DNA from: Narcine bancroftii
Lineage: Eukaryota
Assembly (NCBI RefSeq): GCF_036971445.1
Contig: NC_091477.1
Coordinates: forward strand, 122,698,001 to 122,762,000
DNA: 64,000 nucleotides
Reading direction: 5' to 3'
Shown: positions 15,623-48,908 of the stretch, piece after piece
Position numbering within the stretch: the stretch's first letter is position 1
Layout of the letters: each line of letters begins with the position of its first letter
Position numbers and translations under genes: made by a program
Notes under the pieces: model-generated
What the model saw: only the letters and a program-made list of their open reading frames with translations
What the model was told of the DNA's origin: nothing
Databases searched by the model: none

Positions 15623-15944
15623 TGGTGGTAAGGTTGAGGGTGAGATCCCTGACAATAAACAATCCAACCAAGTCCTCAACGGTGGAACAGGCAGATGGTT
15701 ACTTCAAACTCAACTGTTGTGAAGACAGACAAAAACTGCAACAAATCTATCAGCTCAAATTGTCGTGGAATCCACACCATGGAACTAATTGGTTGATTAT
15801 GAAGTATCTTATGCTTCTTGGGGTGCAACATCAAGTAGACGTTAAACAAATACACACACAGGGATCTTCACTTGGTGGGCTACTTTCCAAGATTGGACTC
15901 ATAACCCACTTGAGAGCCCCTAGGAAGGAAGACTATCATCATAT

Positions 15945-16615: not shown

Positions 16616-16649
16616 TCTCATCCTTGACCTCGAGGGTCACGACGATGAG

Positions 16650-17560
16650 CATCTAATTCACATGACCCTTGCTGTTTCCTGCTTCCTAGATCCATTTATG
16701 CTTCCTTCTTCCTCTTAACCAGCTGCCTCGCCAGTTTTGTCAACCACTGTTCCATTTCCCTACCATCTTTTTACTGTCTCAGTGGCACAAATCTATCCAG
16801 AACCCCTGGACAAGTGGCCCCTAAATACCTTGAAAATGTCTTGTTCAGTTCTTCATCTGGACTTGTGATACTAAAACCCGTCAAAATGGAATGGAATGTA
16901 AACAATTAATGTTTGGACAATGTGAAAGAGACCAGGTGAATATGCAAATGTAGGCTTGAGTTTAATATTAATAATAGGCAATTCATGGCCAGAGGCAGGT
17001 TGGACAATGGCGATCTTTGTCAGTGTTTGGGCACTTCCCAATTTAATTCTTCTCATCTTGCACTTCCTGCCTTGTTTGCCAATTTAGATTGGAGTTGACC
17101 TTGAAAATGAACACTAAGTAATGAAGTGAACCAACAGCAAAGTAATACAGACATTGGCGAGATGCTGGTGGATATCTGAGGTAATGTGAGGTACATAATA
17201 ACAAACCAAACTGACTGTTTCAGTCCAAACAGGACATTCTGTATTGCGATAATGATTCAGCAAGGTTATCCCCCAAAAAGAAAAGAAACCGGCTGTATTA
17301 ATGTGCAACATTTAAAATCCAAGTTGTTGACATTGTTTCAGTATTGCAGAACGCTCCTTTGTTAATTGTTTCTGGCAAGTCAGTGGAAACTTTGGAAGAA
17401 TTTAACATGATCCATTGATCAGCAATAACTAAATCCCAGGAACGTTCGTAAACTGTGGCCAAAATAGTGAAGAAAATGTGGAAGATTCTTCAACAGTGCC
17501 AAGCAAATCATTTAGGAGGAAAATATGGTCAAGTTAGTTTTTTAAAGAACATGGGATTAA
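16650..17560 (-). mobile_element. Old non-LTR retrotransposon fragment (RTE-like)
   Basis: Heavily decayed coding-like sequence resembling the C-terminal region of RTE-clade ORFs. Clade assignment is tentative. Confidence 0.4.
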
Positions 17561-17639
17561 AATCAATCATAGAAACTCTCAGAAAAATTGGTTATTTTAT
17601 ATTTTAAAAAGAACCAAAAGATTTCCCCTCAGTCTTTGA

Positions 17640-18395
17640 CTCTCCAAGGAATAAAGTCTTATCCTCTTCAACCTTTTCCTATAACGCTGATCTTTGTCCC
17701 AGGAGCATCCTTGGAAATCATCTCCACATATTTTTCAATCATATTGATATCTTTTGTGTAGATAGTTGACCAGAACTGCACACCATACTCCAAATTTACA
17801 CTCACCAATGGTATACTTCACCATGACATCTCTACTCAATATTTACGAAGGCCAACCTGCCAAAAGCTTTCTTTTCAACACAATCTACTTTTGCTGTCAT
17901 TTACAAAGAATGGTGTATCTGTATTAACTACAGGAAAAACGTAAATGCTTTGGAGAATGTGGAGAGAAGAATTACCAGGACATTCCCTGGATTGCAGAGC
18001 ATGTCATCTGAAGCAAGGCATTTTTTCTGCAGCATTGAAGGATGACGACCTACATATGAGAGGCTTAGATAGGTGGACAGCTAGCACCTATTACCTGGGG
18101 TGACAATAGCAAATACCAGAGGGCATCTATACGAGATGAAGGGAGGAAGGATGGGGGGGGGGGGTAATGTTTTCTAACAGAGAGCGGTGGGTGCTTGGAA
18201 TCCATTGAGGGCGGTGGTGGGGGAGGCTGGTATAATAGGGATATTTCAAAGGCTCTGAGACAGGCAGATGGATGTAAGAAAAATAGAGGGTTATGGGTGT
18301 GAGGTGGGGAAAATTTTGGATTCGGTTTACAGGGATTGGCACAACATCGTGGGCTGAAAGGCCTGTACTGTGCTGTAATGTTTTATGTTTTATGT
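17640..18395. mobile_element. Two CR1 fragments head-to-head (17640-17920 minus; 17945-18395 plus)
   Basis: Minus part contains GACCAGAACTGCACA (CVQFWS reversed). Plus part contains the RVVGAWN motif and a CTGTACTGTGCTGTAATGTT tail. Confidence 0.7.
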
Positions 18396-18707
18396 AATTC
18401 AAGATCCTTATGCTCTGCCACACTCCGCAGTTACCTCAGGTTTACTGCACAAGTCCTGCCTTGGTTCGGCCTCCCAAGGTTCAACACCTCACACTTTCCT
18501 ACATTAAATTCCTTCTGGATTTTTTGGCCTATTTTCCCAGGTGGTCCAAATTCCTCTGATTTTTTAAAATTCCAAAATACATATTTCTTATCCAGGTGTA
18601 GGAGGTTCAATAAAATTAGATTTTACTCCATTTGTTCCTGGGTGCATCCCCCATGGAGGCCACGCACAATTTCAAGATAATCTGCTCAATTGCGAATAAC
18701 ATGGAAT

Positions 18708-19004
18708 TGTGGTGGCACGCCATTAGACAGGTGAACCAGCCCCGCATGTCACGCACGTGGTGGGGCAGCCGGCCAAAATGGCGCTGCCAGGGGTTTCTCC
18801 CCGACCTTGGCACCAGGCTCAGAAGCCCGCGCTCTGCGGCCCACGTGACACCCCGGCGACATCAGGGCCCCGGCGCGGTTCTCAGCCAGGTCCAGGCTTG
18901 GAGCATAAGACCAGCCAGGCACACCTCAATAAATGAGTTTTTGCTCACTGAACTCAACCCTTTGGCCATGAGATCATTCAGCAACCAGAGTAGCTGCTGC
19001 TATA
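18708..19004 (+). mobile_element. Solo LTR (Gypsy-like), 297 bp, 4-bp TSD GAAT
   Basis: Begins TGTGGTGG and ends GCTGCTATA (likely CA>TA). GAAT at 18704-18707 and 19005-19008. AATAAA at 18928. CpG-rich interior. Confidence 0.75.
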
Positions 19005-19689
19005 GAATTGCAATTTTCCTTTGTCCTTGTGTTAGTTTTCTTTCATTTCGCTTATATTTTTTTGGGGTGTTAAAGCTGCCAAGGTCAACGTGTACCCCAC
19101 CCCCACCCCCACCCCACCCCCCACCCCCACCCCCCCCCCCCCCCGCTTCCAAATGTGTGTATTATCCATTCTCGAGTTTACCTGTGTCAAAATGCTCCTG
19201 GTTCCTTGGTTGCTGGAGCTCGAGGCTTAACCCTTGACTCGTTTTTGCTGTGTTCCAGCAGATCTCTCAATCTTAATACAAACTGGCGTTAGTTTGGAAG
19301 GCGAGTTTCTCACCCACGAGCATGTTGCAATCCAATGGTAAAGATGTTTTCACCCAATGTGCAATGAAGCCCACGGACACTTCATGTTAGCCAACCTTGG
19401 AATGGCTACCAATGAAGCATTTCCAACGCAACGCACTGCAAGAGGTCGGTGATGTCCCCAAATTATTACAATGTTCCAAGTATTACAGTTGTCCCAACCA
19501 AGCGTTCGGCGGAATTAGCGGTCTTTGGTTAACAGGGTCGAGCAGGAAGAAGCCACTCCGTCGTCCGTTCAATGATTTATCAACCAGAGACCTGAAGATT
19601 CATGAACAGCAGATCTCTCAATGAAGAGGCGAGGCGTGGCGACAGGACTCGGTTCAACCGGCCCATTCATTACTTGGGTGAGTGTTGTG

Positions 19690-20350
19690 TGACACAGCTC
19701 AAGTGCAAGGGGAAAGTGCACGTTAAATGGCAGGATTTACGATGTGCAGAGGGATTGGGAATCCAAGTCCATGGTTCCTTGAAAGTGGCCACGGAAGTAG
19801 ATGGGATGGCGACGAAGGCGTCTGGTTTGCTTGGCTTCATGAGACAGGGCACTGCGGATAATAAGGTCACAGCTATTGAACGCTTCGGTTGGAAGACTAT
19901 TGTGTGAAATTCTGGTCGCTTCGTTGCAGGAAGGGCGTGGGGGTGGGGGGGGGGGGTTGGAAAGGGCACAGAATGATTTAGCAGGATATTTGCTTGGATT
20001 AAAAGGCATGAGCTTCAAAGAGAGGTTGGATTTTTTCTCAATCCTGTGAGGCTGAGGGAGGCGTCGTTGGCATTGATCAAATTATGGGAGGCGTTGTTGG
20101 AGTAGACGGTCAGGATCGTCCTCCAGGGCAAACGTGTTACCTGAGGGAATGCATTTAAAATGGGGGGGGGGGAGTTAAAGGAGATGTGCGGGGCGAGCGG
20201 TGGGTGCCTCGAACAGGGTAGTGGTGGAAGCAGATACAAGAAAGGCGCAGGTAGATTCAGGGAATGGAGGATATTTGCCAGATGCAAGCAGCAGAGTTTT
20301 AGATCAGGTTGGGCACAGACATCGGGGCCTGAGGCCGTTCCTCCGCCGTA
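19690..20350 (+). mobile_element. CR1 fragment with unusually many CpGs
   Basis: LGIQVHGSLKVATEVDGMATKASGLLGFM followed by CR1 3'-end motifs. Confidence 0.75.
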
Positions 20351-20947
20351 CCGTATTCTATCTCACAAACGTTCATCACTGGTGACGAACTCGCAACCTG
20401 CGCTGAACTGCTGCGGTTTTATGGAGGCCAGATCACCTGCATCCCTGGTTGACAGAGGACGCTCACGATGGCGCTTGTGTCACACACCACTGGGCAAGTT
20501 GGAAATCGATGCCTCGAGTAGCGCGATTTTTTCCAAACCAGGATCAAGTCGGGAATGTTTTGAAATGTTATTTTAAATTTATTTACTACACTGTAGAAGC
20601 CGATCCCTGCATTGAACCCGGTGCAGCCCAATTACACACAATTAACCTACCGAGCTGATAGATCTGATAAGTTCAATATGAGACGAATTCCACCCATTAG
20701 GAACTCTCTCTCTCTCTCTCGATTCAAATGCTTCTCGCGGCGTCCAACGATTACGGGAAACCTGCAGACGTTGTGGTGATAGTGCAATGTCCAAAGTGCT
20801 GGAGAAACTCAGCAGGTCAATGGGAAGTCAAGAGCGGTCAACGTGTCGGGCCGAAGTCCAGACCGTGTCGGGTTGGAATGATCTGGAGTCTCTTTAATTT
20901 ACATGCAACTTTCATTTTGCAGAGTCGAGTGTAGCTGAAGATGCTGA

Positions 20948-21400
20948 ATGTCCCAACGCAATGACCAGCCAGATCATTTCCCCGACCCTTTTATCTCCTC
21001 CCCACTGATGGCAGCTTCTGTTAACAAGCAGCAAGTCAACGATGCAGATTCACCTGCCCTTGCAAATACGCCAAAGGTTGCACTGGGGGAGTCAGTCGAC
21101 AGAAATGGTCGCGGGGAGTTGGTGATAAAGGAACGGGGCTCAGCGATTCAGCGGCAGGATCGGGAAGCGACCCCGCATTTCGCTGAACATGCAAGGGCTC
21201 CGAGGTCGGAGCCACCGCCTTCCGCGGAATATCTGTGCCACGTCGAAGCCGCGGAGGCCACTCTCTTGCGCGTCGCCGAGAAGATGGGTGAATGGGAGGA
21301 GAAAATTGCCTGCATCTCGAATATATTACAGCAAGTTTGCTGCCACTTGAAGCCCACAGAGACCAACGAGATATCCGAACACACCGGGGACAACATCTGA
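20948..21400 (+). CDS. Orphan 150-aa ORF with a predicted C-terminal helix/coiled coil, possible exon of an unannotated gene
   Basis: Non-repetitive, CpG-retaining ORF preceded by acceptor TTTCATTTTGCAG| (exon start 20923, with an in-frame TGA before the ATG). No family recognised. Confidence 0.4.
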   Translation: MSQRNDQPDHFPDPFISSPLMAASVNKQQVNDADSPALANTPKVALGESVDRNGRGELVIKERGSAIQRQDREATPHFAEHARAPRSEPPPSAEYLCHVEAAEATLLRVAEKMGEWEEKIACISNILQQVCCHLKPTETNEISEHTGDNI

Positions 21401-21444
21401 AGACGTGCAGTTCCTCAACCAGTCTCGACACTACAGACATCCTT

Positions 21445-21718
21445 TTTTTTTTTATTTTTCAAACCATAAACCACATTGACCATGATACATACATTTTCCT
21501 TTTCAAATATATACAGTGCCATTTTCTCCCCCCTCCCTCCTCCCATCCCACCCTCCCTACCTCCCCCCCCCCATCCATTTAAAGTACAAAATCTAAGATA
21601 CATTAAACCAGACAAACAATGTTGTCATTCAATAAAAATAAACAAGAAATTCCACTGAGTCAATTCTTTTCATTTCCTTCTCCTTTCGTTAATTTAGGTG
21701 GTGAATGTCCCCGGTAGG
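21445..21718 (-). mobile_element. 5'-truncated LINE (L1-type) 3' end with about 12-bp TSD
   Basis: Poly-T with TTTATT at the left end. ACAGACATCCTT is duplicated at 21433-21444 and 21719-21730. Confidence 0.8.
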
Positions 21719-21958
21719 ACAGACATCCTTGAGAGGGGGGTAGCAATACTTGCATGTTAATCCTTTGGACTCCGTGTCCCGCTTTTCAGGAACTACCAAC
21801 AAGTGTTCCCGTTTTCGGGGATTGGTTCTGTACCCAACCTTCGAACTATGGACCCAGTCCGGAGTACATATTATGAACGGTTAAAATGGCCTGAGTTCAA
21901 AGGGTTAAGGAACTTTGATAACTTACACTACAAGTACTTCATACAGTGGAATCATAAG

Positions 21959-22553
21959 TAAAATAATGTCCAGAGGACCCCACAACCCAGAAGCAACAGA
22001 CATGCACCACGACAAAGGGTTACTTAAACAAACGTTGCTTTTAATGATCTTTGAACGTGAAAATAGAATCAAACTTTATCTTATCTCCATTGACTCACTT
22101 AAACCACTCATTTAACCCCCTTCTAATTCTAAGCGCACTTGTGTGTAATGTGTCTTGTCAGTTCAGCAAAGTTCTTTGGTTCACAGTCCAATCTCACTGT
22201 TTGCAGGCAATTCTTGTACTGTGCACAGAAGTTAACATTAATAAAATTCACCAGGCTTTGGTGCTTAACAGGTAATGGTTACCTCTCAGAAGGGTTCTTG
22301 TTGGTTTTTAGAGAGTTTTCTTGTTCCAGGACATCCACAACTGATTCCTTTTTAGTCAGCCGTTCCAGTGTCTGACTGATGAAACTTGTCCCCTTCAGGG
22401 TTCTCCAGATGATAACCTCTTTCTTTCAGGTCACCAGTGAGTTCCTTTCTGCTTCTTCAAATCCAAGGAAAACACCAGACAGCCGGTCCTCTCCTTTGAC
22501 CAGGCCGTCTTCAAAAACTTTCCAGTTTGTCCCTCTGGATCTGATGTCTGTGA

Positions 22554-22610
<57 letters not shown>

Positions 22611-22879
22611 AACTCTGAGAGCAAAGTCTCTTTTTTCTCTGCTCTCTACCTGCAAAGATCACATGACCCTCCAGACAGCAAGTTCTGGTTTCCAGAAAAA
22701 TTTGCCTCTGCATGTTCTTACATTTGTTGCCTTTTGCAAACAACAGTCCATCATAAGTCTCTGAGCACTCTTGCAAAAGCTCCTGCAAAAAAAATCTGTG
22801 TTTAAAGTGTTTATGTGTGGCCTGCTCTAACAAAACTTTCCCAATTTATCTCCCAAACACCAATATATACTCTGTCACA
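21959..22879. mobile_element. Solo LTR (about 920 bp) with internal (CT)n, 4-bp TSD TAAG
   Basis: Ends CTGTCACA. TAAG at 21955-21958 and 22880-22883. Homologous fragment at 13087-13420. (CT)n at about 22558-22604. Confidence 0.65.
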
Positions 22880-23126
22880 TAAGGCACAAAATTGGAGCTT
22901 TCATTTATGGTGGAAATAAATGGGATGCTGTTTTATCCAAAGGGCAAAACATTCTTTGGGTCCCAGAACTATTTTGACGTGTGGAACAAATCAATTCTTG
23001 TAGAGTGAGTTCTGTGTATTTCTATCCAGCCTGGGCATAAATGACTACAGAGAAGAAGGTTAAATGAAGTTGAAGTGTGTGAGAACCACAACTGTATGGA
23101 ATGACAGGAGTGTTCGAGGCGGTGGC

Positions 23127-23240
23127 CAGTGGTTCTCAACCTTTTACTTTAAGTAATCCCTATGGCATCGGTGCTCTGTGATTAGTAAGGGATTGGTTAA
23201 GGTGGTATGTGGGTTGAAAGAAAAAGGTTGAGAACCACTG
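23127..23240. mobile_element. hAT (Charlie-like) MITE, 114 bp
   Basis: 19-bp perfect TIRs CAGTGGTTCTCAACCTTTT ... AAAAGGTTGAGAACCACTG. Related copies at 35528-35891, about 55900-55975 and about 56835-56910. Confidence 0.8.
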
Positions 23241-24149
23241 TTTTAAATCAATAATAAAGCAGAGAGACATTCCTCATCATTGTTTAAATCAAAGCATCAT
23301 TGGGATATCCATGAGATCCGTTGTCCAATGAGACAGAATTGAGTTGACGTGGCTATTCCAGTCAATCACCACTCTGCGTACCTGATCTCACAGAGGAACT
23401 CAAAGAATAATAGCTTTTAGGTACAATTAAAACTAAATTGGATAGTAGAAAAGTCCTGCACTGTATTTGTCAGTAGTCTTGGAAAGAAGTGCTGAGACCT
23501 TTATAATGTGGCCTCTTTCTCTTTGGAGCCTATTAATTCCTCTTCTCAATGGAAGAGATAACTTCGGCAACTCAAATGACATGCATACTGTGAGAACCTT
23601 TTAATCCTGGCATTCTGCATTTCGGAACCGCTCCAGTATATATATTAATCAATTTGCTGCCTTAAGGAAGTAAATTTATAAGACAATTTGCTCTGTCAAA
23701 TTCACAATAGGATTGGTTTCCTGAAACATATATCTGTAAATATTTTTCTCTTTCATTATTTAAATGCTATAGGAAGGGAAGGTAACAGCTGAAGATGAAT
23801 TCTCTGTTGCAATTGTCAAATTTAAATCAGCGGTATCTCAGATTCATGCTGGAAAGTCCAACTCAAGACAGTTAATCTTTGCTATTGTTAATTTCAAAAG
23901 TGCCTGTTGGGTTGAAACAAGTAAGAATTCGGATGTGCCTGTACAGTGAACGCGTGTGTACACATTGCCTAAACTTCCATCTCTTGCTGTTCTTCTACCT
24001 GTATTTCAATTGGTCGGCAGGGGGCGCTGGGATCTCTACAAACGGAGAAATGTTCAGTACGGCTGGCCGTTCGGCCCTCCATGTCCATGCTGACCATGAT
24101 GCCCTATGGGAAGGGCAGTACTGAGGAAACATCCACTGTGGGGGGGGGC

Positions 24150-25200
24150 AGTATTGAGGGGGGGGGGTTCACCAAGTACCCTCCATGGTGGGACGTGCTA
24201 GCCCTATTCTTCCTTCACTGGGGTTGCTTCCTACAAGAAGGGGCATGGCTCCCAGTGGTGAATATCAGTGATGGTGGAGCTGCCCGTGTTTTACCGGGAG
24301 CTATGTGGATCTGGGGCTTGGTGTCTACCGGAGAGGGTGGGCTCTGTCCCGCAGCTATGGGCATCAAGAGGGCTCGGGGGGAGGGTGCGGGTCAAGTAGA
24401 CGCGGCTGTGCTGAGCCTCGATCAGCCGGGGGTGCTCGTCGGACCCAAAGCCCGACAGGTTTTGTGGGGGACGGTCCGGGACAACATGAACCACCTCCTG
24501 GCGTCTTGCGCTGCGCCATTCCGGGATGAGCCAAAGCTGTTCCTCTCACTTTTCCCTTCCTCGCCCTCGCCAGTCGTCCAGGCGCACTGTGGCAGTCTGC
24601 TTTACTGGCCGGCATTAAGGCAATCCCCAGTGGAGGCTCCTGTGGGCAGGAGTCCTCCCCTTTCCATCGGTGACCTGTGCTGCACCGAGCAGCGCCACGG
24701 AACCGCTTCATGAATCAGTTCATCGACACCCCGCTCCTGATCCACGGCCGCCCGGTGAGGAAGGGGGCTGGGTGTTCAGTGGATCTCCTTGTGGCCTTAC
24801 TGTGGGGGTTGGTGAAACTAGCCATTCACGGCTCGAGGATGCGGGCAGTTGAGGGGGTCTCCCCACCCCAGTCAACTCTCCCCAGCTGACTGCCTGCCTG
24901 TCTTTCGGGGTTTTGTCCGGGCGCTGCGGTGCTGGAGCCCGAAGGGATGGTGGCTGAGTTCTGGGAACGATCTCCCCCCCACCACCCCCCCTCCCACCCA
25001 GGGGATCATGTGTGTGATATAAGATGAAAATTAATTTGATGTGTAATACCGTGTAATGGAGAAGGTGGCCATGATTACTGCTTCTCACGGATTTGTTGCT
25101 ACATCTTATGGTGGTTTTTGGTTTTAGTTGGAGCTCCGTGTGTGTTTTGTGTTTGTAATGTTGTAGGTTGAATACAGTTTGTGAGTTTATTTTAAAAAAG
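24150..25200 (+). mobile_element. Tx1-like non-LTR retrotransposon 3' fragment
   Basis: GC-rich. LHRA..RNRF..F.DTPLLIHG...DLLVALLWGLVKLAIHGSR resembles Tx1-type ORF2 C-termini; the zinc knuckle appears deleted. GT-rich 3' UTR. Confidence 0.65.
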
Positions 25201-25296
25201 GGGCAATTCTAGGGGAACTTTACACAGTGGGAGGGGCAGTAGTGAGGGAGCTCCCTCGAGAAAGTGTGCCCCCTCTCCAAATACTTAGGATCCCAC

Positions 25297-25333
<37 letters not shown>

Positions 25334-27009
25334 GAGCGTTACTGTCAGTCACACCATTGCAAAATAGACGGGAGCAGCTGCAGTTTCAGACTGTGGCCGC
25401 TTCATGCAGTTTCAAACTGCTCTACTATCACAGTCCACCTCCCTCCACTCCACCCCCTGCTTCATTCTAAAGGACTCCGAAGCTTGACCCAGCCCCTGTC
25501 CTGGCCTGAGGGCCTCTGAACCTCTCCCATGGCCTCCTGGAATCAGGGAAACATAGGGTGAGCTCACAGTTCCAATGGTGACTCACTGCCCCCGGGAGCT
25601 GGCTCCACTCACCCACCTCCCTCTGTGTCAGACTTGCCCCTCAGGTCCAAAACATTCCCTTCACTTCCCATGAATGGTGCATGACCTGCTGAGTTTCTCC
25701 AGCACCTGCCCACTTTCCTGCTTCACCTCAGGTCTCTTTCTCCTCAAACCCGTGCCCTCCTGCTTCAGACTTCCTTCCACAGGGAGAAAACTGACCGTCC
25801 TATTTTATCTCTCCTGGTTCTAGAAACTTCTATAAGGTTCCCCTTCCGCCTCCTGCTCTCCCTCATTGTGTCAGCCACGGGGGATGATGAGCAAACTGCC
25901 CCTCCTGCCGACTCCGCGGTTCCGCCGGTATTTCAGACACTCTCTGCGGATATCTGCTGGGAGGATTCACTGATGAAAGAAGTCGAGGAGGGCCCACACT
26001 CTTCCTGCTGCATTGCCCCTTTAACTCCTGCTCTCTGGCACCACTAGTGGCATCAGGAGAGAGGCGGAATCAGAGACTGCGGGCGGGGGATGGGCTTTCA
26101 TCTGTGCCTGCGAGCAGGGAGAGTAACCCCATTGCATCCAAGAGAAGCCCGGTCGTGGATCGACAGCGGGGACTTGGCATAAGGTAAGGAGCAGAGCTGT
26201 AGAAGTTCCATCCCGATCCTCCCGCTCAAACCAACGCCGGGCACACTGACCCTGGAGACCCCAACCTCCAGCTGCTCCTTGCTACGAGGAGGAGAGGGGA
26301 AAGGGTATATTCTCGTCCTTCAGCACTGCAGGAGACTGAACCCCCCCTCCCCCCCGCGGATCACCTACCGAAGTGACTCACCCAGTCCCGCCCCACCTCT
26401 TCATGGTTCTGGGAGCAGAGATCAAGCGGCAGAGGCCACACTGGCAGAGACCACCAGCAATTCTGAGATCTCCTGCTTCTGGCTCATTTTGCTTCTTCCT
26501 TGAAGATAGGCTCAGGGCGGAAACCTCAGGAACATCTCTGCTTTTTCTGGGCGCTGAAAGACTGGTTGAATTCCTCTAACACAGAAGTTTGAAAAACAGG
26601 CTGGTAGGTAGAGCTGATCCCATGGCCAGATCACCTAGGATCTAATTCAATAGGGGAGCAGGCTCGACGGGCCGGATGGCCGGCTCCTGCCCCTGTTTCT
26701 GATGTTCTCATGGAGCCCAGAGAGGGTGTTAGATGTGGAGGTGAAGGAAAGTTGCGTACAGTAGTTTTTTACACTAGCTCTGCCTGGCCCACAGGAAAAG
26801 GGATCTCCAGTTGTATATGATGTCATGTATGTACTCTGGCCATAAATCTGAGGTTGGGGAGTTGGGAAGGGAATGGGGGAGGGAGGGAGGAGATTGTAGA
26901 GGAAGACATGCTCTGCTGTCTCTAAGGCGGGGGGGGGGGGGGGGGGGTGGGGGGGCGAAGCCACACTCACCCCAAGCAAGGATGATTTTAAAGAATCACC
27001 ATCGATTAA

Positions 27010-27245
27010 ATTTTAAATGTAGACACACAGCAGGGTAACAGGCCCATTCCGGCCCACGAGTCCATGCTGCCCAATTAACCTACCCCTCTGGTACACTTTG
27101 AAGAGTAGGAGGAAACTGGAGCCCCCAGGAGAAAGCCACACAGGGAGAATGTACAAACTCCTTACAGACGGCGTGGGACTCAAACCCCGGTCTCGCTCAC
27201 TAGCAATGTAAAGGCGTTTCAGTAACCGCAACGTGAACCATCCCA
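27010..27245 (-). mobile_element. HE1-like V-SINE
   Basis: Reverse complement of the 3478-3735 SINE pattern (GGGAGAATGTACAAACTCCTTACAGAC). Confidence 0.8.
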
Positions 27246-27816
27246 TTTTGGGAACAGCTTTCCTTCTGTTGGTCCATGTTTGGAAGAGGCTTTAAACAAA
27301 ACTCAGCCACAGGTCAGTGTGGCATCTATTTATAAACCAGCGAGAGTCAGAATCTTGCCATTTCTCACTGGCCTGGTGGCTTGTGGGTTACTGTTCACAC
27401 AGCACCATGTTGGTTCTGATTCACCTCTCTCTATTTCACAGGCAACTTCCTCAGCAAGTCAGTGCAGACATTCATCAACCTCAATAAATTTGGCCAGGCC
27501 AACAGTGGGAACAATTATCCCACAGAGTGCACCTTCAGGGGGGCTCAGGCCTGGGCCTGGGCAGATGGAGGGGGGGGGCAGACCATTCTGGAAGATGGGG
27601 CAAAAGACCCAGCTAACAACCAAGCCCCTACTTGCACCATGTTCTGGCTGGATAGGCTGTGGGGATAAATTGACAGGGGAAATACAGACCCTCACCCCAA
27701 GCCTACAGTTCCTTGATCATAGAATGATCACAGTACAAAGGCCATTCAGCCCATTGTGTCTGTGCTGGCTCTCAATACCAATCAGGAGCAGGCTGTAGAC
27801 TCTGGAGAGAAGTGCG

Positions 27817-28270
27817 ATCATATATAGGTGAGGGTGGTCTGGGGTGTGATCATAGAGGTGAGGGTGGTCTAGGGTGTGATCATAGAGGTGAGGGTGGTCT
27901 GGGGTGTGATCATAGAGGTGAAGGTGGTCTGGGGTGTGATCATAGAGGTGAGGGTGGTCTGGGGTGTGATCATATAGGTGAGGGTGGTCTGGGGTGTGAT
28001 TATAGAGGTGAGGGTGGTCTGGGGTGTGATCATAGAGGTGAGGGTGGTCTGGGGTGTGATCATAGAGGTGAGGGTGGTCTGGGGTGTGATCATATAGGTG
28101 AGGGTAGTCTGGGGTGTGATCATAGAGGTGAGGGTGGTCTGGGGTGTGATCATAGAGATGAGGGTGGTCTGGGGTGTGATCATAGAGGTGAGGGTGGTCT
28201 GGGGTGTGATCATAGAGGTGAGGGTGGTCTGGGGTGTGATCATAGAGGTGAGGGTGGTCTGGGGTGTGAT
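27817..28270. repeat. 30-bp minisatellite, about 15 copies
   Basis: Unit GGTGAGGGTGGTCTGGGGTGTGATCATAGA with few substitutions. Confidence 0.97.
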
Positions 28271-28354
28271 TGAGTTTGACAAGGCAGCTGAGAAGGCTTA
28301 AATAAACATGGGTTATTTATAAATAGGCTTTGGATAGAGAAATATGATTCCTAA

Positions 28355-30960
28355 CACAGAACATTACAGCACAATACAGGCCCTTCTTCCCATGATGTTG
28401 TACCAAACTATATAAACCTGCTCAACAATTGAACCCTTCCCTTCCTCACACACAACCCTCTATTTCTCCCACATCCACATGTCTAAGAGTCATTTAAATG
28501 CCCCCATTTGTACTAGGCTCCACCACCATCGCTGGCGATGCATTTCAGCCACCCACCACTCTCTGTGTTAAAACAAAACTTACCCCTGATGTCTCCCGTA
28601 AACTTCCTCCTCTCTCCTTGTACAGATCTCCTCTGCTGCTCTCGCCCCGGGATAAAGGAGATGGCTGTCCTCCCTATCTAAGCCTCTCAATCTTGTAGAC
28701 CTCCATTAATTCTCCTCTCCTCCTCCTTCACTCCATAGAGAAAAGTCCTCACTCTGCTAACCTTGCCTCATAAGGTTCCCAATCCTGGCAACATCCTGGT
28801 CATTCTCTTCTGCACCCTCTCCATAGCTTCCACCTACTTTCTGTAATGAGGTGACCAAAACAGAACATAGTACTCTATTTGTGGTCCAATCAGAGTTTTA
28901 TGGAGCTGGAACATTATCTTGTAACAAACATTGGTTAAGCCCAAGCTAGGAGCATTGTGTCCATCTCTGGGCCCACACAATATAGACAGAACACAGAAAT
29001 AGTCCAGAGATTTATTAAAGTGATCCCAGGGATAAGAGACTTCTGTTAACAAGGAGACAGGAGCTGCAGGGATTGTACCCCTCAGGCCAGAGAGAGTGAG
29101 GGAAGATTCAACAGGGCCTGTAAATCTGGAAGGGTTTGAAGAGTTGTGTCAGGAGGTGTTTCCAAGGGGCTGAAGGGTTGGTGTGAGGGATATGGAATGA
29201 GGGCAATCAGCAAAAGGTACCATCAGCAAGAGGATCTAGGATTCCCACTTAGGGGAGCATAGGTTCAGGGAGGAGTTCAAAAGAAGAGTTAGAGCAAACA
29301 TACAACATTACAGCACAGTACAGGCTCTTCAGCCCATGATGTTGTGCTGACTCAGGGTAACCTATTCCACAACAATCTAATTTTTCCCCACCTCACACCC
29401 ATTGTCCTGATTCTTTTCCCCACCTGTCTGTCAAAGAGTCTTTTGTCTTCCTCTACTGTACCAGCCTCAACCACCACCTCCAACAATGCATTACAGGCAC
29501 CTGCCACTCTTGGGGGGGGGGGGGGGGTGGGGGTGGGGGAGTATATCTGAAATCTCCCACTAAACTTTTCTCTACTCACTTTAAAATGATGCCCCCTGGT
29601 ATTTGCTACTGTCGCCCCAAGAAGCAGGCAATGGCTGTTCACCCTATCTCAGCCCTTCATAATCTTATATACCTTCACCTCTCATCCTTGTCACTTCAAA
29701 GAGAAACACCCTAGCTCTGTTAACCTTGCAGCCTTAAGAGGAAGGATTGTTTTTTTTTCCACAGAGAGTGGTTGACAGAGGATGTGGTCAAGTCATATTC
29801 AATCACCGCCTGATAGGATTTTACACAGACAAGGCACGGGATAGAAGAGTACTGTTGTAGTGTGGGCAAATCAGATTAGTGTTGATGGGCAAGGGGTCAG
29901 CATGGGTGTGGGCTGAATGGCCTGTGTCTCTGCTGTATGACTTGATGACTTATGAGCAGTGGTGATATGAAATGAGAGACTGCTGGAAGCAGGTTCGTCA
30001 GTGAATCAGCTCAGCTTCACACAACATCCTGTTCACTTTGACTGACTCCAGCCTTTTATTTTCCACCCATTCCCTTTTAGTTTCCACCCATTGGGTCTGA
30101 CGGCTAAACAAAAATGCTGCAGATGTGGCAACTCTGAAACCAAAAGAGAAAAAGCTGGAAGGTTTCAGCATGTCAGGTGGAAGCGATGTTTGGAACGTTC
30201 TGTAAGCTGGGGCTTTCACTGTAGTTCACGGACAATGGGAGAACACAGAACGTAGAACTCTACAGCACAGTACAAGCCATTTCACCCTCCATGTTGTGCC
30301 GATCTCCATATTCCTACCAAAAAATAATTAAACCCTCCCCACCTCATAACCCTCTATTTTTCTTTCATCTATGTCCCTGTCTAATGTTTCAGCCTCTACC
30401 ACCACCCCCACCCCCAACCCCCGACCAGGTATTCCAGGTATCCACAACTCTCTGCGTTTAAAAAAAAATCTTGTCCCTGATGTCTCCCCTGAACTTCCCT
30501 CCCTTCACAGTGTACACATTTCCTTTGCTATCCCTGCCCTGGGAAACAGGTCCACCCTATCTATGCCTCTCAGAATCTTGTAGACCTCTCATCCTCCTAT
30601 GCTCCACAAAGTCCCAGCTCTGCCAACCTTGCCTCATAATGAGAGGTAAGTTAATAGAAATGCACATGATTGTGAGAGGCATAGGTAGAGTGAACAGCCA
30701 GCACTAGTTTTCCTGGGGCAAATACCAGAGGACACCTGTTTAAGGTGAGGGGAGAGAAGTTCAGGGGAGACGTCAGGGGTAAGTTTTACAGAGTTGTGGG
30801 TGCCTGAAATTCCTTGCCAGGGGATGGTGGTGGAAGTGCAATGGGGACATTTAAAAGACTCTTAGACAGGCACATGGATTTAAGAAAAATAGAGGGTTAT
30901 GGGCCAGCACAACATCATGGGCTGAAGGGCCTTACTGTGCTGGAAGGTGCTGTGTATTGA
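28355..30960. mobile_element. Cluster of CR1 3' fragments in alternating minus/plus orientation
   Basis: Tail motifs ACATTACAGCAC...GGCCC and CATAACCCTCTATTTT on minus pieces; AAAATAGAGGGTTATG and GGGCTGAA.GGCC on plus pieces; EYYVLFWSPHYRK. Confidence 0.75.
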
Positions 30961-31479
30961 TGTTAAATTGTTCCTCCCTACATCTTGGGCCCAAACCCTG
31001 CAAAGTTTCCAGCACTTGCGGTTTTGAATTTCCAGGCCTATAGCTTAACGTCCAGTAAAATCCTCACTAGCAGATGGCAGTACTGGGCCTCCCCGTCACA
31101 GCCACAATGCCAAGATCATGAGATGGTCTGAGGAAAAGCCTCAGCAGGGCCGTGGCCACAGGATTGGCGTGGTCCACCACTGACTGCAGACATGGTGCTG
31201 GCCCACTATCCCACCTCTGTTCTTGGGTGACTGCCAGTAGAGTCAGAGACCCATGTCAAATCCTGACCTCTCCTGCTGCTTACATAGAGTTGGCACGTTC
31301 CTCCTTATTGTATAGCAGGAAGCAGGCCCTTCAGGCCCATTCATCCATGCCAACTGTGTTGTGGTCTTGAACCAGGCCCATTTCCCATCAGGACAGGCAT
31401 GGTCATCTGAACAGAACGGTGGCAATGCAGAGAAGGACCAGGCCGAAAGGTTTGTGTCAGTGTTGTCTCTGTTGGTGTA

Positions 31480-31745
31480 ACAGTTAGTGTAACGCTGTAA
31501 CAGCGCCAGCAAATGGGGTTCGAATCCCGCGCGATCTGTAAGGTGTTTGTATATTCTCCCCGTGTCTGTGTGGGTGTCCATGGAAGTTCCAGTTTCTTTC
31601 CACAACTTAAAATGCACCAGGGGTGAAGATTAATTGGGGCAGGAGAGGGGTAGTAACTGGGAGAGATGGTAGAAATGTGAGGAACTGGGTGTCAGGATAA
31701 AGCAGTGGGCCAATATAGACTGGATAGGCTGAATAGCCTTGCATA
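31480..31745 (+). mobile_element. HE1-like V-SINE
   Basis: GGTTCGAATCCC B box and V-domain TTTGTATATTCTCCCCGTGTCTGTGTGGGT. Confidence 0.75.
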
Positions 31746-32149
31746 TTGTAAGTAAATCTGGAACATACAGAGGTAAGGCCATGAGGCTTTGAAGCAGAAA
31801 TAGGCCACTCAGCCCATCAAGTCTGCCCCACCATTTAATCATGAGCTGATCCATTTTCACACTCAGCCCCATTGCCCTGCCTTCTCCCCCTAACCTTTAG
31901 CTAATCACGAACCAATCCCTCACAACCTATGACCTACAAATGCTAAAATTAAAGGTGACAGAAACTTCCTGGGCTCTGACAATACTGGGCCTTGGTGCCA
32001 GTGGCGGATCCCATACTCCCAAGCTGCCTTCTGTTTGGACGCTGCTACATTTCAGTTCTCTCCTTGCTGGTTTGGCCTACTCTCGCGGCGGTACCAGATT
32101 ACCGTTCTAATTGATCTTTCTGTTGACAGAAGTTTGGACAGTGTTCCAA

Positions 32150-33232
32150 ATGGCGGAAGAGCCTTCAAATAACCGGAGGAAGATGGGAGGTGACGTGACC
32201 CTGCCGGCACCTCGGGAAGGAGCACTACCTCCGGTTAAAGAAGCCACTGGCACATTGTCCTCCGCGGGATCCAGGACCCAGGCAGCGGGCTCAAGATCTA
32301 GGTGTGGCAGTGCCTCCAAGCCACCACAAGTGGGCCACCCCAGAGACCCCGCAGGGGGGAAATCTGCCAGCCAGACCGGCCAGGAAACAAGGATTCAGAA
32401 CAAAGGCATCCCATCGCTCCCTAGAAGAACTGACTCTGACACCAGGACAGAGGGCAAAACTTCGAGCTCTGCAAACCAGCATGGCCAAGGGGGGTACCCC
32501 AACCTGGAGAAGATTGGCCAAGCGAGGATAGCAGAGATTGAAAGGGAGACCCGGGGGCAGAGGGACAACCCAGAATGGTTTAACCAGCGCAGATACCGGA
32601 TCACAGCGACCGCGGCCCACAAAATCTCCCGCTGCAAGTTTGTCAATGGGAGAAGTGATGAGGTCCCCCAGTCCTACCTGAAGCCCATTGTGGGCCAGGG
32701 TTCCAACGTGATGACTCCTGCTATGAAATGGGGCATTGATCATGAACCACATGCCATCACAGAGTACCAGAAGATCAAGTCTAAGCAGGAAGGACAAGAG
32801 ATTGAAGTCCAACCCTGTGGCTTGTTCATTGACCCAGCCAAGAACTGGCTGGCAGCGAGTCCTGATGGGCTAGTGGTTGACAAGGCCACAAAGAGACCCC
32901 TGGGCCTGTTGGAGGTGAAGTGTCCGTACAAGCACCGGAATCACAGCATCGCCAAGGCTTGCGAAGACAAAGACTTCTGCTTGGAGAGCAAGAACGAGCT
33001 CCATCTGAAGAAGCAACACCCCTACTTCACCCAGATGCAGTGCCAGATGGCAGTCACTGGGATGAGAAAGGCCGACTTGGTGGTTTACACCAGCTGCGAC
33101 ACTGCCGTAGTCCCCGTGGACTATGATGAACACTTTTGGCTTGATGCTGTGGACAAGCTGGAAGATTTCTACATCCGAGCTGTCTTGCCGGAAAAACAGA
33201 AAGGCAACACAGTGTGGGCAAGGGAAAAGTAG
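32150..33232 (+). CDS. YqaJ viral-recombinase / lambda-exonuclease-family PD-(D/E)XK nuclease, 360 aa, one uninterrupted coding exon
   Basis: TRGQRDNPEWFNQRRYRITAT, AMKWGIDHE, CGLFIDPAKNWLAASPDGLV, LLEVKCPY, HPYFTQMQCQMAVT, FW...KLEDFY...VLPE. About 125-aa low-complexity N-terminus. Acceptor TTGATCTTTCTGTTGACAG| at 32129/32130; ATGG at 32150. No stops or frameshifts. Confidence 0.9.
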   Translation: MAEEPSNNRRKMGGDVTLPAPREGALPPVKEATGTLSSAGSRTQAAGSRSRCGSASKPPQVGHPRDPAGGKSASQTGQETRIQNKGIPSLPRRTDSDTRTEGKTSSSANQHGQGGYPNLEKIGQARIAEIERETRGQRDNPEWFNQRRYRITATAAHKISRCKFVNGRSDEVPQSYLKPIVGQGSNVMTPAMKWGIDHEPHAITEYQKIKSKQEGQEIEVQPCGLFIDPAKNWLAASPDGLVVDKATKRPLGLLEVKCPYKHRNHSIAKACEDKDFCLESKNELHLKKQHPYFTQMQCQMAVTGMRKADLVVYTSCDTAVVPVDYDEHFWLDAVDKLEDFYIRAVLPEKQKGNTVWAREK

Positions 33233-33294
33233 GCTGGGAAAGCTCCCTGGTATCACATCACACAATATCCCTGCCATTCAGATAGTTGCAGTGA

Positions 33295-33870
33295 TTAGAG
33301 CCACACAGCATGGAAACAGGTCCTTTGGCCCATCTTCCCCATGCCAACCAGAATGTCCCACCCACACTAGTCCCACCTGCCTGTGTTTGGCCCTTATCCC
33401 TCTCAACCATTTTTACCCAAGGATCTGTCAAATCTGTTCTCAAATATTGCAATTGTCCTTGTCTCAACCACCTCTGAACACCCACTGCCCTCTAAAACCA
33501 AGCTACCCCTCAACTTCCTGTTAAATCCTCCTCCCACCCTGTCACCTTAAACCCATGCCCTCTGGTTACCAATTCCCCTTCTCTGGGTAACAGACTCTCT
33601 GTGTTCACCCGATTTATTCCTCACATGATTTTCTGTACCTCTGTGTGATCACCCCTCATCCTTCTGGGCTCTAAGTAATAAAGCCCCAGCCTGTTCAACC
33701 TCTCCCTGTAGCTCGGGCCCCCGAATCCTGGCCGCATCCTCGTAAATCTTCTCTGTTCCCTCTTCAGCTTGACGACATCTTTCCTGCAGCACGGTGACCA
33801 GAACTGAACACTGTGCTCCAAACGGGATCTCACCAACCTCTTGTACAACAGCAACATCACCTCCCAGCTA
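33295..33870 (-). mobile_element. CR1 LINE 3' fragment
   Basis: LYKRLVRSRLEHSVQFWSPCCRKDVVKLKREQRRFTRM...RERLNRLGLY. Confidence 0.85.
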
Positions 33871-33969
33871 CTTTCAAAATCTCCTGGAGGTAAAAGTAAC
33901 CTCTGTAACAAACAGGCATGTACTTCCTTAACTGCTGGGTGATCCGCTGAATATTTCCAGTTATCATGG

Positions 33970-34185
33970 ACGGCAAGGTTAGCAGAGTGGCTCGTGTAAT
34001 GCTTTTACAGCACCGGGAACAGGGTTCAAATCCAGCCCTGTCTGTAAAGAGTTTGTATGTGTTCCCTGTGTCGATGTGGGCTACGTCCCACCATTCAAAA
34101 CCTAGTGGAGTTGTTTGGGAGACACAGGCTTGTGGGCCAGAAGGTGCTGGTACCATCCTGTATGCTTAAAATTAAATTAAAAATT
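33970..34185 (+). mobile_element. HE1-like V-SINE (degenerate)
   Basis: GGGTTCAAATCC B box and CTGTAAAGAGTTTGTATGT core. Confidence 0.65.
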
Positions 34186-34639
34186 AAATATATTTTAAAT
34201 AGTCTATCCTGTAAGGTGCCCAGTAACACTGCAGGAGTTATATTTCCCTGATCTACAGTGAAATTTATCGTGGAGCAGGCTTCTAACGGATGCAGAGGCC
34301 AGCACAGGATAGCTGGTGTGTCAACTATCAGATTGTAGGATGCTGCAGTCTTGTCTGGCAAAGGGCATGGCTGACCGGGTGAAATCATTTCAAATTAAGG
34401 AGGTCACCTGTCTAGAATGAAAGAATTGTAATGTTTCTACCTTCTACTAATGGAGGTGGTTGCCTGAAGATGGACAATAATCAGTTCCTCACTCTCTGGG
34501 TTGGGAGAACTGACAAATCCTTGGCTTGCTCTGACAGCCAGAGGGGAACTTTGGTCATCATGTTACCTTCAACAGCAGCTCTAGTGCCAATAGATCTTGA
34601 ATGAGTCAGTTTGGAACTCCATCATTTAACCTCTCTGTA

Positions 34640-34885
34640 AATTTAGACATACAGCATGGTTACCAGCCATTCCAGCCCATGAATCTGTGCTGCCCAATAT
34701 TCACCCAATTAACCTACATCGCCGGTATATTTTGAAGGGTGGGAGGAAATCAGAGCCCCCAGGGAAAACCCACGCAGACATGGGGAGAAAGTACAAACAC
34801 ATTGCAGCACGGGATTTGAACCCCAGTCCCGATCGCTGGTGCTGTAATGGCATTGCACTAACTGCTACGCCAACCGTGCCCGCTA
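34640..34885 (-). mobile_element. HE1-like V-SINE
   Basis: GGGTGGGAGGAAA...GGAAAACCCACGCAGACA.GGGGAGAA.GTACAAAC and GGATTTGAACCC. Confidence 0.8.
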
Positions 34886-45577: not shown

Positions 45578-45804
45578 CTACTCGCTGAATCGTTTCTTGG
45601 GTCCAGTCCGGGCCCGGTTTGACCTCCTGATGTCATGCTTGGAGTCTTTACACTTCTGGCAGATGAAGACCTCGGGAACGTTCGACTTCCTGATTTTGGC
45701 ACAGGAGAGGTGGATCCACGTCCCACACTCATTGCACTCGATCATCGGTCTCCCTGCAAATGGCTTCATGCAGAAACACGTGATCAGATCCCAGGAATCA
45801 TCTT
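45578..45804 (-). CDS. PHF23: PHD finger protein 23, exon 5 (PHD finger and stop)
   Basis: (E)[51 protein letters not shown]...*, a C4HC3 PHD finger. Acceptor TCTTTCCTTTCAG|. Length 227 nt. Confidence 0.9.
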
Positions 45805-48029
45805 CTGAAAGGAAAGAGACAGTGAATACCCTCGTGTCCAAGTTCAACCTCTCTCCCCCCCTCCCACTAACCCAGAACATCGCCAAGGACAAGAAGAGGT
45901 GAACTCCACTGATTGAACCACCCATGCCTCACAGATGGGACTGATGAAGGGCTCATGCCCTAGACATTAGTTCTGTATCTTTATCTTTGCTAATATATAG
46001 GACATTGTTTGACCTGCTTTGCTTCTTCAGCATTTTGTGTTTTTACTTCAACCACGGAGTCTGCAAACTTTCGTGTTTTACTTTTGGCCTTGAGGGAAGG
46101 TCATTTGTGATCCTTTCCCAGTCTGCCACCCCAATCCCACACCAACTCACTAACTACTCCCTGGTGGTTCACAGGTGGTTCAAAAGGAAGGTCAACAACA
46201 AGTTCTCAGGGAAACAAGTGCCAACAAAAGTGAAGATTACAGCAGGAACAGGCGGGACAGAAAAAAGCCTTTGGCTCACAGGCCAATCACTGGCCCAATA
46301 TCCCACAGCATCTGATGCCAGCAGAGCAGTAAAGCTCACGTTCAAGGCCGCTGGACAACACGGAGGAAATGGGCAGAAAGAGAACAGGTGCTATCTTACA
46401 ACTGGGACGCTGAGTGCAAGGGCCTGGGGATAACCCAGGACAGAGTGTTGACCACCGGCCTCCAGATGAACAGTAGGATAGATCGGAGTTCCTTCAGGAG
46501 CTTGGCTGTTCCTCAATGGACTAGGGGCAAGACAGCACCCGTCCTGATGGTCACTACTTGTATCAATGATGAAAACTTCTGGTTTCCAGCAACTCCATGA
46601 AAACCAATCCCATTAGAGGATGTGCTTCCACCCAGAGGGAACAAGGGGGAGAGGAGTTCCCCTTTTGGGTAGGGGGGGGGGGGGAGAGAGAAGAATGGAG
46701 GAACATCCCACTGGGGGGGAATGGAGGGGGGAACAGAGGGGAGGAGCGCCCCACTTTGGTGGGCAGGGGAGTCCAGATGGAGAGTGATCATGAGCTGATT
46801 TGAACACAGGGACAAGCAGTTTTAAGTGGTAGCTTTGCTCCAAGGATCCGTGTAGTCAGTGAACACCAGGGAGAACAGTGGATGAGTCAAAGGTCAGATA
46901 TGGGGCAGGGGAATATCGAACAAGAATCTGTTAAAGGTGAAAGCTGCGACTCACCACTGGGATTATGTAGGGAACACAGAATGAGACAGATGTTGGACCA
47001 GTGACTTCCCCCAGGAAACACCAGCCACAATGAACTGGATGTGGAGGAGATGGCTATCAGTCTGACAAACAGGCTTCCCTGCACCTTAACCTGGCCTGGG
47101 GTGCAATCCTTACACTCTTGGCCATGCACACCCAGTTATCAATCACTGTGTCAGTGGGTTGCAGAATGCATGAGCTGTTCCCTCCTCCTTGTTGAATTAG
47201 CCAGGAGATCAAAGGAAACAAAGATGACAAACTGCAACCTTGAGGAAGGCCTCAGACTGGAAACATCAGTAATACATCTTTCCCTCCTATGGACGCTGCG
47301 AGACCGGCTGAGCTCCTCCAGCATTTCCATGTTTTTATTATGATGGACTGTCAAGCTCAGCTCCCAAAAGCAAAGGTCTGAGGGCAGTGTTGACCGGAGG
47401 CGGCAGGCAGGAACGTACTGACAGTGCTCTCACAGCTCAGACAGAATGGGAGGAATGGACAACAGGAACGAGGCAGTTCACCAGAAACTTGCCTTCAATC
47501 TTGAGGTTTTCTGTTGGAGCAGCATCAGGGGAGTCTGCAAGATAACGAGCACATGTTAGCCATCCCTCTCCCCTGAAAAGAGAATGGTGTTTAAAGGAGG
47601 CCATTCACCACCCCAAGCATTTTCATACAAATTGACCTCTCTTTAGAGAAAGGACCTTGTCTTCAAACTGCTTGAAATGAACCTGGTGTAACACCAGGCT
47701 CCGAATTTTTAGTTTGTTCTGTAGTCATTGCCCTGATTAACCTGAATAGCACAGACATTCGTCATTGCATCTGGAATCTTGCCCAATCTGGCCTTCAATC
47801 CTCAACACTTCTCTGTGTCACCTTCAGACTAGCATCAGGTCCACAATGTAAACAGGCAGAGTCTGGTCTGAAGATCGTGCTTTCCTGCTTCAGGCAGACA
47901 CCAAACTCAGTTATCCCTCTACTTCCTCTGTCAATTTACATCCAATACACAGCAGTTTTCCCCTTTACCCAATCCTATTCTGAAAACGACCATTGAAATT
48001 TCTTCACCTGCTTTTCAGCTACAGATCAC

Positions 48030-48600
48030 AGAACAATCCCATGAACAAATGCTCAACTTTCCACATCATTCCCCATTCTCCTGCCAGAATCCCTACTCCC
48101 TTGTCGACATGTCTGTCCATGGTCTCATGGACTGTCAGACTGAGACCACCCATATATTGGAGGAACAACAGCTCATCTTCCATCTGGGAACCCTCTGGCC
48201 AGATGGAGTTATCCACGACCTCCAATTCCCATTAACCCCTTCAATTAATCCCTATGTCTCCTTGTCTCAAGCTCTGTCCCTCCCTTTCCTTTTCTGTTTC
48301 CTTTCCCCCAGCTCTGCATTAACAGAGCCAAACCTCCTCTCCACCAATCAATTCTCTCTGTCCTCCCATCCTTATCCAATTAACACCTCTTGCCTGGTGG
48401 TCTGGGCTCCTCCCCCTGGCCTTTCTTTTCATCTCCCCAGCCTTTTAATTCAGACACCTGATTTTTAACTCATTACTTGAAGAAGGGGTCAGGCCCGAAA
48501 CGCAAGTAATATCTTTCCCTCCTACGATTGCTGCGAGACTGGCCGAGTTCCTCCAGCATCTCTGTTTTTACTACAATCACAGTGTCTGCAGACTTTGGTG
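48030..48600 (+). mobile_element. Penelope-like element 3' fragment
   Basis: LEEQQLIFHLGTLWPDG followed by the GAAGGG..CAGGCCCGAAACG / GAGTTCCTCCAGCAT terminal motif, which recurs in the window (about 10900-11060, 45940-46085, 47225-47345, 59990-60200). Confidence 0.7.
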
Positions 48601-48908
48601 TTTCACAGAATAAAAATTTCTAATCCAACATTACAATGTGTAATCTCATCCCTGAGTGACTCTTTTGCCCAGAAACCCAGTTTCAAGTTTACGAAGGGTA
48701 TTGAGATCCTTCCTCCCTGTTGCTCAGAATACCTCAAACACATCATCCTTGAAGTTGCATCAATAATTCACGGTACTACTTCAGATGTCTAAACTCAATA
48801 GACTAATGTGCCCTCGTATGACTGGTGATGCCAGGTCCCACTGTTGTACACCGCAGCCCATCAGTGCTCGGTATTCAGCAGATATTTTGGTTTGGACAAG
48901 GTCCTCAC

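Follow-up and report, generated by a model that had tools for sequence, protein, structure and literature searches.

The stretch of DNA considered here, termed the window, comprises 64,000 nucleotides of the genome of the ray Narcine bancroftii. Between SRCR-domain exons on one side and a gene resembling PHF13 on the other, it holds a stop-free reading frame for a protein of 360 amino acids, set within an open frame of 373 codons (Table 1). A preliminary description, made from the letters alone, had claimed an uninterrupted frame of 360 codons, and this is confirmed; when the whole window is shuffled 30 times with local base composition preserved, the longest of the six-frame open frames spans 152-319 codons and none of the 30 reaches 373. 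The protein is a member of the lambda-exonuclease/YqaJ family, to which it had been assigned. Its residues 142-305 match Pfam YqaJ (PF09588) with an E value of 1.7e-20 and 74.3 bits, against a curated cut-off of 22, and the 360-residue protein also matches Viral_alk_exo (E 1.5e-8). The family motifs W143/R147/R150/T152-A-T154, W194-G-x-x-H-E199, S237-P-D239-G, E255-V-K257-C-P and Q295-x-Q297-x-Q299 all lie at the positions where they had been described as intact, with the one qualification that the second T of 'TAT', at 154, is atypical, being S in 130 of 132 orthologues.

Table 1. Features of the window, numbered from its first letter
Feature	Position	Strand	Basis
SRCR-domain exons, upstream	28-387 and 3656-4252	-	Pfam
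Likely 5' non-coding exon, possibly beginning further upstream	26047..26183	+	X5 contig geometry, donor sequence
Likely GT-AG intron, 5946 nt	26184..32129	+	Splice-site sequences, X5 depth drop
Second exon: 20-nt leader, whole coding sequence, 3' UTR	32130..34700	+	X5-X7 contigs; 34700 is a minimum end
Coding sequence, 360 aa, lambda-exonuclease/YqaJ	32150..33232	+	Open frame, Pfam, AlphaFold2 model, Foldseek
Disordered basic N-terminal tail, aa 1-123, pI 10.2	32150..32518	+	pLDDT mostly <50
5'-phosphate pocket W143-R147-T152-T154, aligned to lambda W24, R28, T33, S35	32576..32611	+	Profile alignment
Wedge region M192-x-W194-G-x-x-x-E199, aligned to lambda L78, W80, G81, E85	32723..32746	+	Profile alignment
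Catalytic S237-P-D239-G ... E255-V-K257-C-P ... R263, aligned to lambda S117-P-D119-G, E129, K131, R137	32858..32940	+	Profile alignment
Q295-x-Q297-x-Q299 motif	33032..33046	+	Conservation
C-terminal tail WAREK	33215..33229	+	Orthologue comparison
PHF13-like gene exons, downstream	45578-49617	-	Pfam, record match

How is this frame expressed? A pyrimidine run and CAG, ending at 32129, form the canonical splice acceptor that had been noted 20 nt 5' of the ATG. Four sequencing runs, all from one study, contain 73-79% of the sampled words and have been guessed to derive from RNA, no listed run being recorded as such. Contigs from X5, X6 and X7, which are three of these RNA-like runs, and from one DNA run were placed on 15500-34700. 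The X6 and X7 contigs over the reading frame begin exactly at 32130, the first base past the acceptor. Contig 6 of X5 (1389 nt, depth 452.8) maps to 32128-33381 only from its base 136, and its first 137 bases fit 26047-26183, with a consensus donor, AAG/GTAAG, at 26183/26184. X5 contig 4 ends at 26076, giving a 30-nt overlap with the start at 26047, and a variant at 26132, bearing on the X5 exon assignment, shows equal depth in one contig. The contig geometry, variant depth, overlap and donor therefore lead us to infer a likely non-coding first exon followed by a 5946-nt GT-AG intron, the joint being derived from contig geometry in one run. A contig inside this intron has a depth of 5.9, against 452.8 for the exon contig. 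The putative first exon also contains a short ORF (26090-26182) that ends in a stop in frame with the main ORF; since this stop closes the ATG at 26090 before the donor, translation is likely to start at 32150. Downstream, X7 contigs extend over 33364-34700, and X5 and X6 cover nearly all of that stretch. Junctions into 32130 had been proposed as a check on transcription, and the contigs of all three RNA-like runs start at or splice into the acceptor, which argues, subject to the guessed RNA status of the runs, that the gene is transcribed as a host gene.

Two smaller observations concern the same region. The X6 and X7 contigs start at 32130 and not at 32128, which may reflect a second upstream exon in those samples. 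Within the inferred intron a tandem repeat of about 27 nt, at 27717-28316, gives rise to long repetitive open frames on both strands.

Could this be no more than the reading frame of a young transposon, or a contaminant? The coding sequence does lie in a single exon, as in mobile elements, and it had been proposed that many near-identical copies flanked by terminal inverted repeats or a transposase would reveal such an origin. The ray genome (3.3 Gb) gives one match with the protein as query and one with the Pfam model, and with a transposon-type relative as query this locus is the sole nuclease match, the three other matches falling in the PHD part; all these counts are lower bounds. No Pfam family is found at E<=0.001 in 105 of the 118 listed flanking frames of at least 68 aa at 21.9-45.9 kb. 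The protein and these 105 frames reveal no DDE transposase linked or fused to the nuclease, and the Pfam search of the same frames reveals no annealase gene beside it. As for inverted repeats at 25-40 kb, the best 25 of 159 by length are 71-91% complementary and resemble scattered repeat copies, and no near-perfect pair among these 25 brackets the gene. The view that transposase, partner domains and terminal repeats are missing from the surroundings is thus borne out. Given the one genome match, the lack of a nearby transposase, the linkage to a PHF13-like gene on the same chromosome from rays to lungfish and a tree largely congruent with the species (both described below), a young transposon ORF or contaminant is rejected as having almost no likelihood.

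The PHD finger 12 kb downstream, considered as a possible part of the nuclease gene, was also rejected, as it lies on the opposite strand in an ordinary PHF13-like gene. A PHF13-like record of Narcine bancroftii matches it with 100% identity across 83% of the query exon frame. The neighbour earlier named PHF23 is called PHF13-like (or PHF23A-like) in the records.

Beyond the ray, a search returned 281 homologues, the best 120 of which are all vertebrate-like, with 42-63% identity. These 120 span rays, sharks, chimaera, sturgeon, paddlefish, a teleost, caecilians, salamanders, frogs, lizards, snakes, turtles, alligator and birds, and further orthologues come from lungfish, bichir, reedfish, bowfin, tarpon, pike, pompano, coelacanth, Xenopus and the lamprey Lethenteron reissneri, so that the orthologues sought in the preliminary description exist across jawed vertebrates from chimaera to birds. 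When 1.84 billion representatives of 50% clusters were searched with a profile, full-length vertebrate members scored 312-440 bits, partial members filled the scores beneath, and the best non-member reached 204; among these representatives we found no invertebrate protein that combines the vertebrate layout with such a score. No mammal is present among the 92 species-assigned matches within the best 120 of 281, and the remaining 27 listed matches besides the query have a core 83-100% identical to non-mammal proteins of known species. We know of no annotated YqaJ protein in human or mouse. These observations suggest that the gene may be absent from, or lost in, mammals.

Most species have one copy, with two each in Amblyraja, Pristiophorus, Pelusios and Carettochelys among the matches listed. 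The orthologue and a PHF13-like gene share a chromosome, as judged from contigs of identical length, in all eight testable species (Pristis, Amblyraja, Rhinoraja, Carcharodon, Mustelus, Heptranchias, Rhincodon and Protopterus), so the proposed synteny with the PHF neighbour extends from rays to lungfish at chromosome level, gene-level order being known from this window alone. The single genome match, the orthologues, the shared chromosome, the transcript-like contigs and the lack of a nearby transposase together support the earlier proposal of a spliced, host-kept lambda-exonuclease gene, and that this is a host gene is close to certain.

Two copies depart from the general pattern. The second Amblyraja copy (P0017), on the same chromosome as the intact one, is without the catalytic lysine, and that of the clingfish Gouania (P0164) is a short, fast-evolving, degenerate copy without SPDG.

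In a tree of 127 rows, cartilaginous fish, neopterygians, sarcopterygians and sauropsids group largely as expected. A mixture-model tree of 50 rows places all vertebrate rows in one clade (99/84), with cartilaginous fish and sauropsids well supported, amphibians split and ray-finned fish not forming one group. Lamprey branches as the sister of jawed vertebrates in the 127-row tree (89) and in a smaller rerun (95), and inside teleosts in the mixture-model tree (83/86). From the trees and the spread of orthologues, the gene would be at least as old as the jawed vertebrates and possibly as old as all vertebrates. The jawed vertebrates themselves are some 450 million years old. The lamprey protein (P0151, from Lethenteron reissneri) has two small insertions in common with teleost orthologues and an acidic N-terminus that looks mis-predicted; this gene may have been obtained from fish by transfer.

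A further branch comprises twelve representatives of 417-874 aa (P0170, P0175, P0179, P0185, P0202, P0206, P0207, P0212, P0215, P0224, P0246 and P0284) that keep the vertebrate-type domain but in which the PD motif and the glutamate of EVK are missing. Seven of them were included in the mixture-model tree, where they form one clade (100/100) on a long branch within the vertebrate gene, beside frogs (94/77). On sequence grounds these twelve are likely to be a nuclease-dead family.

Constraint was assessed at the protein level in 132 vertebrate sequences. Identity to the ray protein is 56-72% in the core and 13-40% in the tail, and in tetrapods 56% versus 13%. In 131/132 all eight residues of the active site and the 5'-phosphate pocket are intact, the exception being the second Amblyraja copy. 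Individually, R147, T152, S or T at 154, W194, D239, E255, Q295 and Q297 are found in 132/132, E199 and K257 in 131/132 and M192 in 127/132. The AlphaFold2 model has 178 residues with pLDDT of at least 90; the core is mostly >90 and residues 1-123 mostly <50, in line with the disordered N-terminus claimed beforehand. The best Foldseek matches of this model are 3syy, 3sz4, 6m9k and 3sm4 (for LHK-Exo, E 2.6e-10 and TM by target 0.72), and matches to LHK-Exo and lambda Exo have E values of 1e-10 to 1e-8. Structure prediction, which had been suggested as a check, thus returns a PD-(D/E)XK fold like that of lambda Exo. It had also been asked if the protein forms a trimeric toroid; a three-copy complex prediction of residues 120-360 scored 0.00, giving no verdict either way. 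Oligomers of the family vary, and it is reported that not all are trimers and that viral relatives in eukaryotes are mostly monomers (PMC3118119).

Outside the nuclease core, the N-terminal tail carries a net positive charge in 112 of the 114 orthologues measured (median +15), and 79/132 sequences have a MGRPRK-type start, which we take to resemble an AT-hook. An EE ending is kept in 125/132 orthologues and is a possible docking motif. Similarly, C258, H262, C271 and C277, kept in 131, 129, 131 and 131 of 132 sequences, are a possible metal site.

What would such a protein do? Fundamental to this question is the comparison with the phage enzymes lambda exonuclease and LHK-Exo (1avq, 3sm4, 6m9k, 3syy), with which the ray protein shares the fold, the PD-EXK centre, the pocket arginine, the wedge position and an equivalent of E85. 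By profile alignment, lambda Exo R28, T33, S35, L78, E85, D119, E129, K131 and R137 correspond to R147, T152, T154, M192, E199, D239, E255, K257 and R263, respectively. In lambda Exo, R28 is reported to bind the 5'-phosphate and L78 to act as a strand-separating wedge (PMC11611040, PMC3118119). By analogy, R147, T152 and S(T)154 would seat the terminal 5'-phosphate of a DNA end, M192 would wedge the strands apart, and E199, D239, E255 and K257 would hold two metals and cut the strand 5' to 3', leaving a 3' single-stranded overhang as product. The basic disordered tail may, more speculatively, carry the protein to nuclear DNA. There are also differences from the phage enzymes, in that the ray gene is a chromosomal host gene with a likely intron, and its protein has a basic disordered tail, an EE tail and four conserved C/H residues after EVK; in addition, the groove-tracking R45 of lambda Exo aligns with F164 and is not kept, and no annealase gene was found adjacent. 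On this homology to lambda Exo, an active 5'-3' nuclease is a confident prediction.

The substrate might instead be RNA, with 5'-monophosphate RNA decayed in the manner of the herpesvirus shut-off nucleases or the distant DXO/Rai1. Viral alkaline nucleases of the wider family are reported also to cut RNA (PMC3424549), and the fold matches include KSHV SOX and the EBV nuclease (E about 5e-4 to 9e-4) and DXO (about 1e-2). LHK-Exo and lambda Exo, however, match with much better E values, and the ray protein is without the extra length of the herpes enzymes, which leaves RNA as a very improbable substrate. The baculovirus and herpesvirus alkaline nucleases and mimivirus R354 belong to the same superfamily, as the Viral_alk_exo match indicates, but they have 11-26% identity to the ray protein over aligned parts, and the viral enzymes are larger and reportedly mostly monomeric (PMC3118119).

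A related question is where vertebrates acquired this gene. Over the domain, identity to the nearest non-members is about 28-42%, mostly 30-40%, and outside relatives of known species are eukaryotic (ticks, a weevil, a periwinkle and a sea urchin). An Atlas search gives arthropod, cnidarian and mollusc clusters with SAP, SWIM, PHD or Mutator domains; a Mutator-like transposase is fused in 7/18 long relatives, and a SWIM-like pattern occurs in 22/128 outside rows versus 0/132 vertebrate rows. The outside relatives are in part multi-copy, with one cluster of 14 variants on many contigs and a Littorina periwinkle protein at three loci; their transposon status is judged from domain make-up and copy number. 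The closest outgroup proteins include P0285, P0168, P0174 and P0162; P0285, the sister row to the vertebrate clade, sits on a long branch, and the group placed as sister is unstable between trees. Also among the long relatives, environmental and other, are P0121, P0123, P0124 and P0125, in which the nuclease is joined to an OTU protease domain.

A YqaJ ORF is reported in ISL2EU transposons (PMC4482050, PMC9179366, PMC4122938), and a lambda-exonuclease-like domain is encoded by KolobokE (PMC9587614), the lineage that takes the place of the KolobokP named in the preliminary description. To judge by their domain make-up (SWIM, SAP, PHD and Mutator-like transposase), the nearest sequence relatives are of the type of the ISL2EU accessory nuclease and the KolobokE nuclease domain. 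Unlike these elements, the ray gene has no transposase, terminal repeats or accessory domains, and is present as one copy in a fixed chromosomal neighbourhood. ISL2EU elements are reportedly missing from elephant shark, gar, coelacanth and tetrapods (PMC9179366); the nuclease gene is found in these lineages, gar itself not being among the rows.

The preliminary description had proposed a domesticated gene of phage or virus type. The family member does appear domesticated, and the donor is more likely to have been an animal DNA transposon, as the best viral contigs have 24-33% identity (best 80 of 107), GenBank phages 25-28% (among 10 of 60 matches listed) and predicted viral structures 12-24%, against the approximately 28-42% of eukaryotic transposon-type proteins. 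A direct viral or phage origin, with at most 33% and, for the phages listed, at most 28%, is accordingly set aside as less likely. It could also be argued that no domestication took place, the gene being either an old, vertically inherited eukaryotic host gene or a direct capture from a DNA virus; one tabulation of the family lists bacteria, eukaryotes and phages and observes no transfer (PMC3424549). The same identity values speak against this, as does the failure of the profile search to turn up an invertebrate protein of vertebrate layout and score, and it is given little weight. An origin from a DNA transposon is, by comparison, likely. After capture, the SAP, SWIM and PHD domains may have been lost, and the basic tail gained together with a C-terminal A-x-E-E motif that might dock on a partner. 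The reading as a whole, in which a domesticated transposon accessory nuclease has become a likely spliced, single-copy host gene for a 5'-phosphate-dependent 5'-3' DNA exonuclease, is on balance probable.

What is the advantage to the host of keeping such an enzyme? One answer is defence or clearance, the nuclease destroying linear DNA that is foreign or out of place, such as excised transposons, retro-cDNA or viral genomes, as a 5'-3' counterpart of TREX1 and fish Plex9. Fish exonucleases that restrict LINE-1 provide a precedent (PMC10123124), some lineages have duplicates, and the nuclease-dead family is fast-evolving. The depth of the nuclease contig differs among runs (452.8, 28.1 and 21.5), depth being a poor measure of expression, and a gene named 'YQAJ' is reported to correlate with parasite load in cyprinid head kidney, although it failed in qPCR and may be a transposon transcript (PMC10525477). 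Fish Plex9, gar PML and TREX1 resemble the present gene in being vertebrate host exonucleases, lineage-restricted and tied to genome defence (PMC10123124), but they have the DEDDh fold, unrelated to PD-(D/E)XK, and the TREX type is reported to work 3' to 5'. Moreover, a gene in an arms race would hardly be expected to be so steadily conserved or to have a single copy in most species, and the basic tail would point to nuclear DNA. Defence is therefore a rather unlikely role. Because the core is steadily conserved and the gene mostly single-copy, processing of nuclear linear DNA ends for genome maintenance, probably tissue-restricted, is favoured over it, and is itself put forward tentatively.

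A literature search outside the subscription journals found no published description of such a vertebrate host gene, and no mention of six orthologue LOC identifiers was found in the searchable literature. Database records of the orthologues give no function, the entries being uncharacterized, hypothetical, domain-only or under plainly unrelated automatic names. This is, then, a real and old vertebrate gene that is apparently undescribed, and if the loss in mammals holds, the gene would for that reason have been overlooked. Domestication of transposons in vertebrates has, to our knowledge, mostly concerned transposases; in the present case it seems to be the accessory nuclease that was captured, and the catalytic residues have stayed intact from chimaera to birds. 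For fish, amphibians, reptiles and birds, the set of enzymes acting on DNA ends is thus enlarged by one candidate 5'-3' nuclease, and as Xenopus has the gene, in vitro and Xenopus tests are possible at once. It also offers a handle on the extra ORFs of ISL2EU-type elements, whose function is stated to be unknown (PMC4482050).

A bolder, and rather doubtful, extension is that non-mammalian vertebrates have throughout their history kept a transposon-derived, lambda-Red-like end-resection enzyme that makes 3' overhangs at DNA breaks. Its C-terminal A-x-E-E motif might dock on a host annealing or repair partner, to which these overhangs would be passed; mammals would have lost the pathway, and frogs would probably have made the nuclease-dead, DNA-binding family from copies. 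If true, there would be a DNA-end pathway invisible to mouse and human cell work.

Finally, the window contains a separate spliced transcript on the forward strand, consisting of 19180-19676 and 20923-21400 with a GT-AG joint at 19676/20922. It includes a 150-aa ORF (20948-21400) that has one genome match and no Pfam match. The transcript reaches a depth of 10806 only in X5, the same run in which the nuclease contig is deepest.
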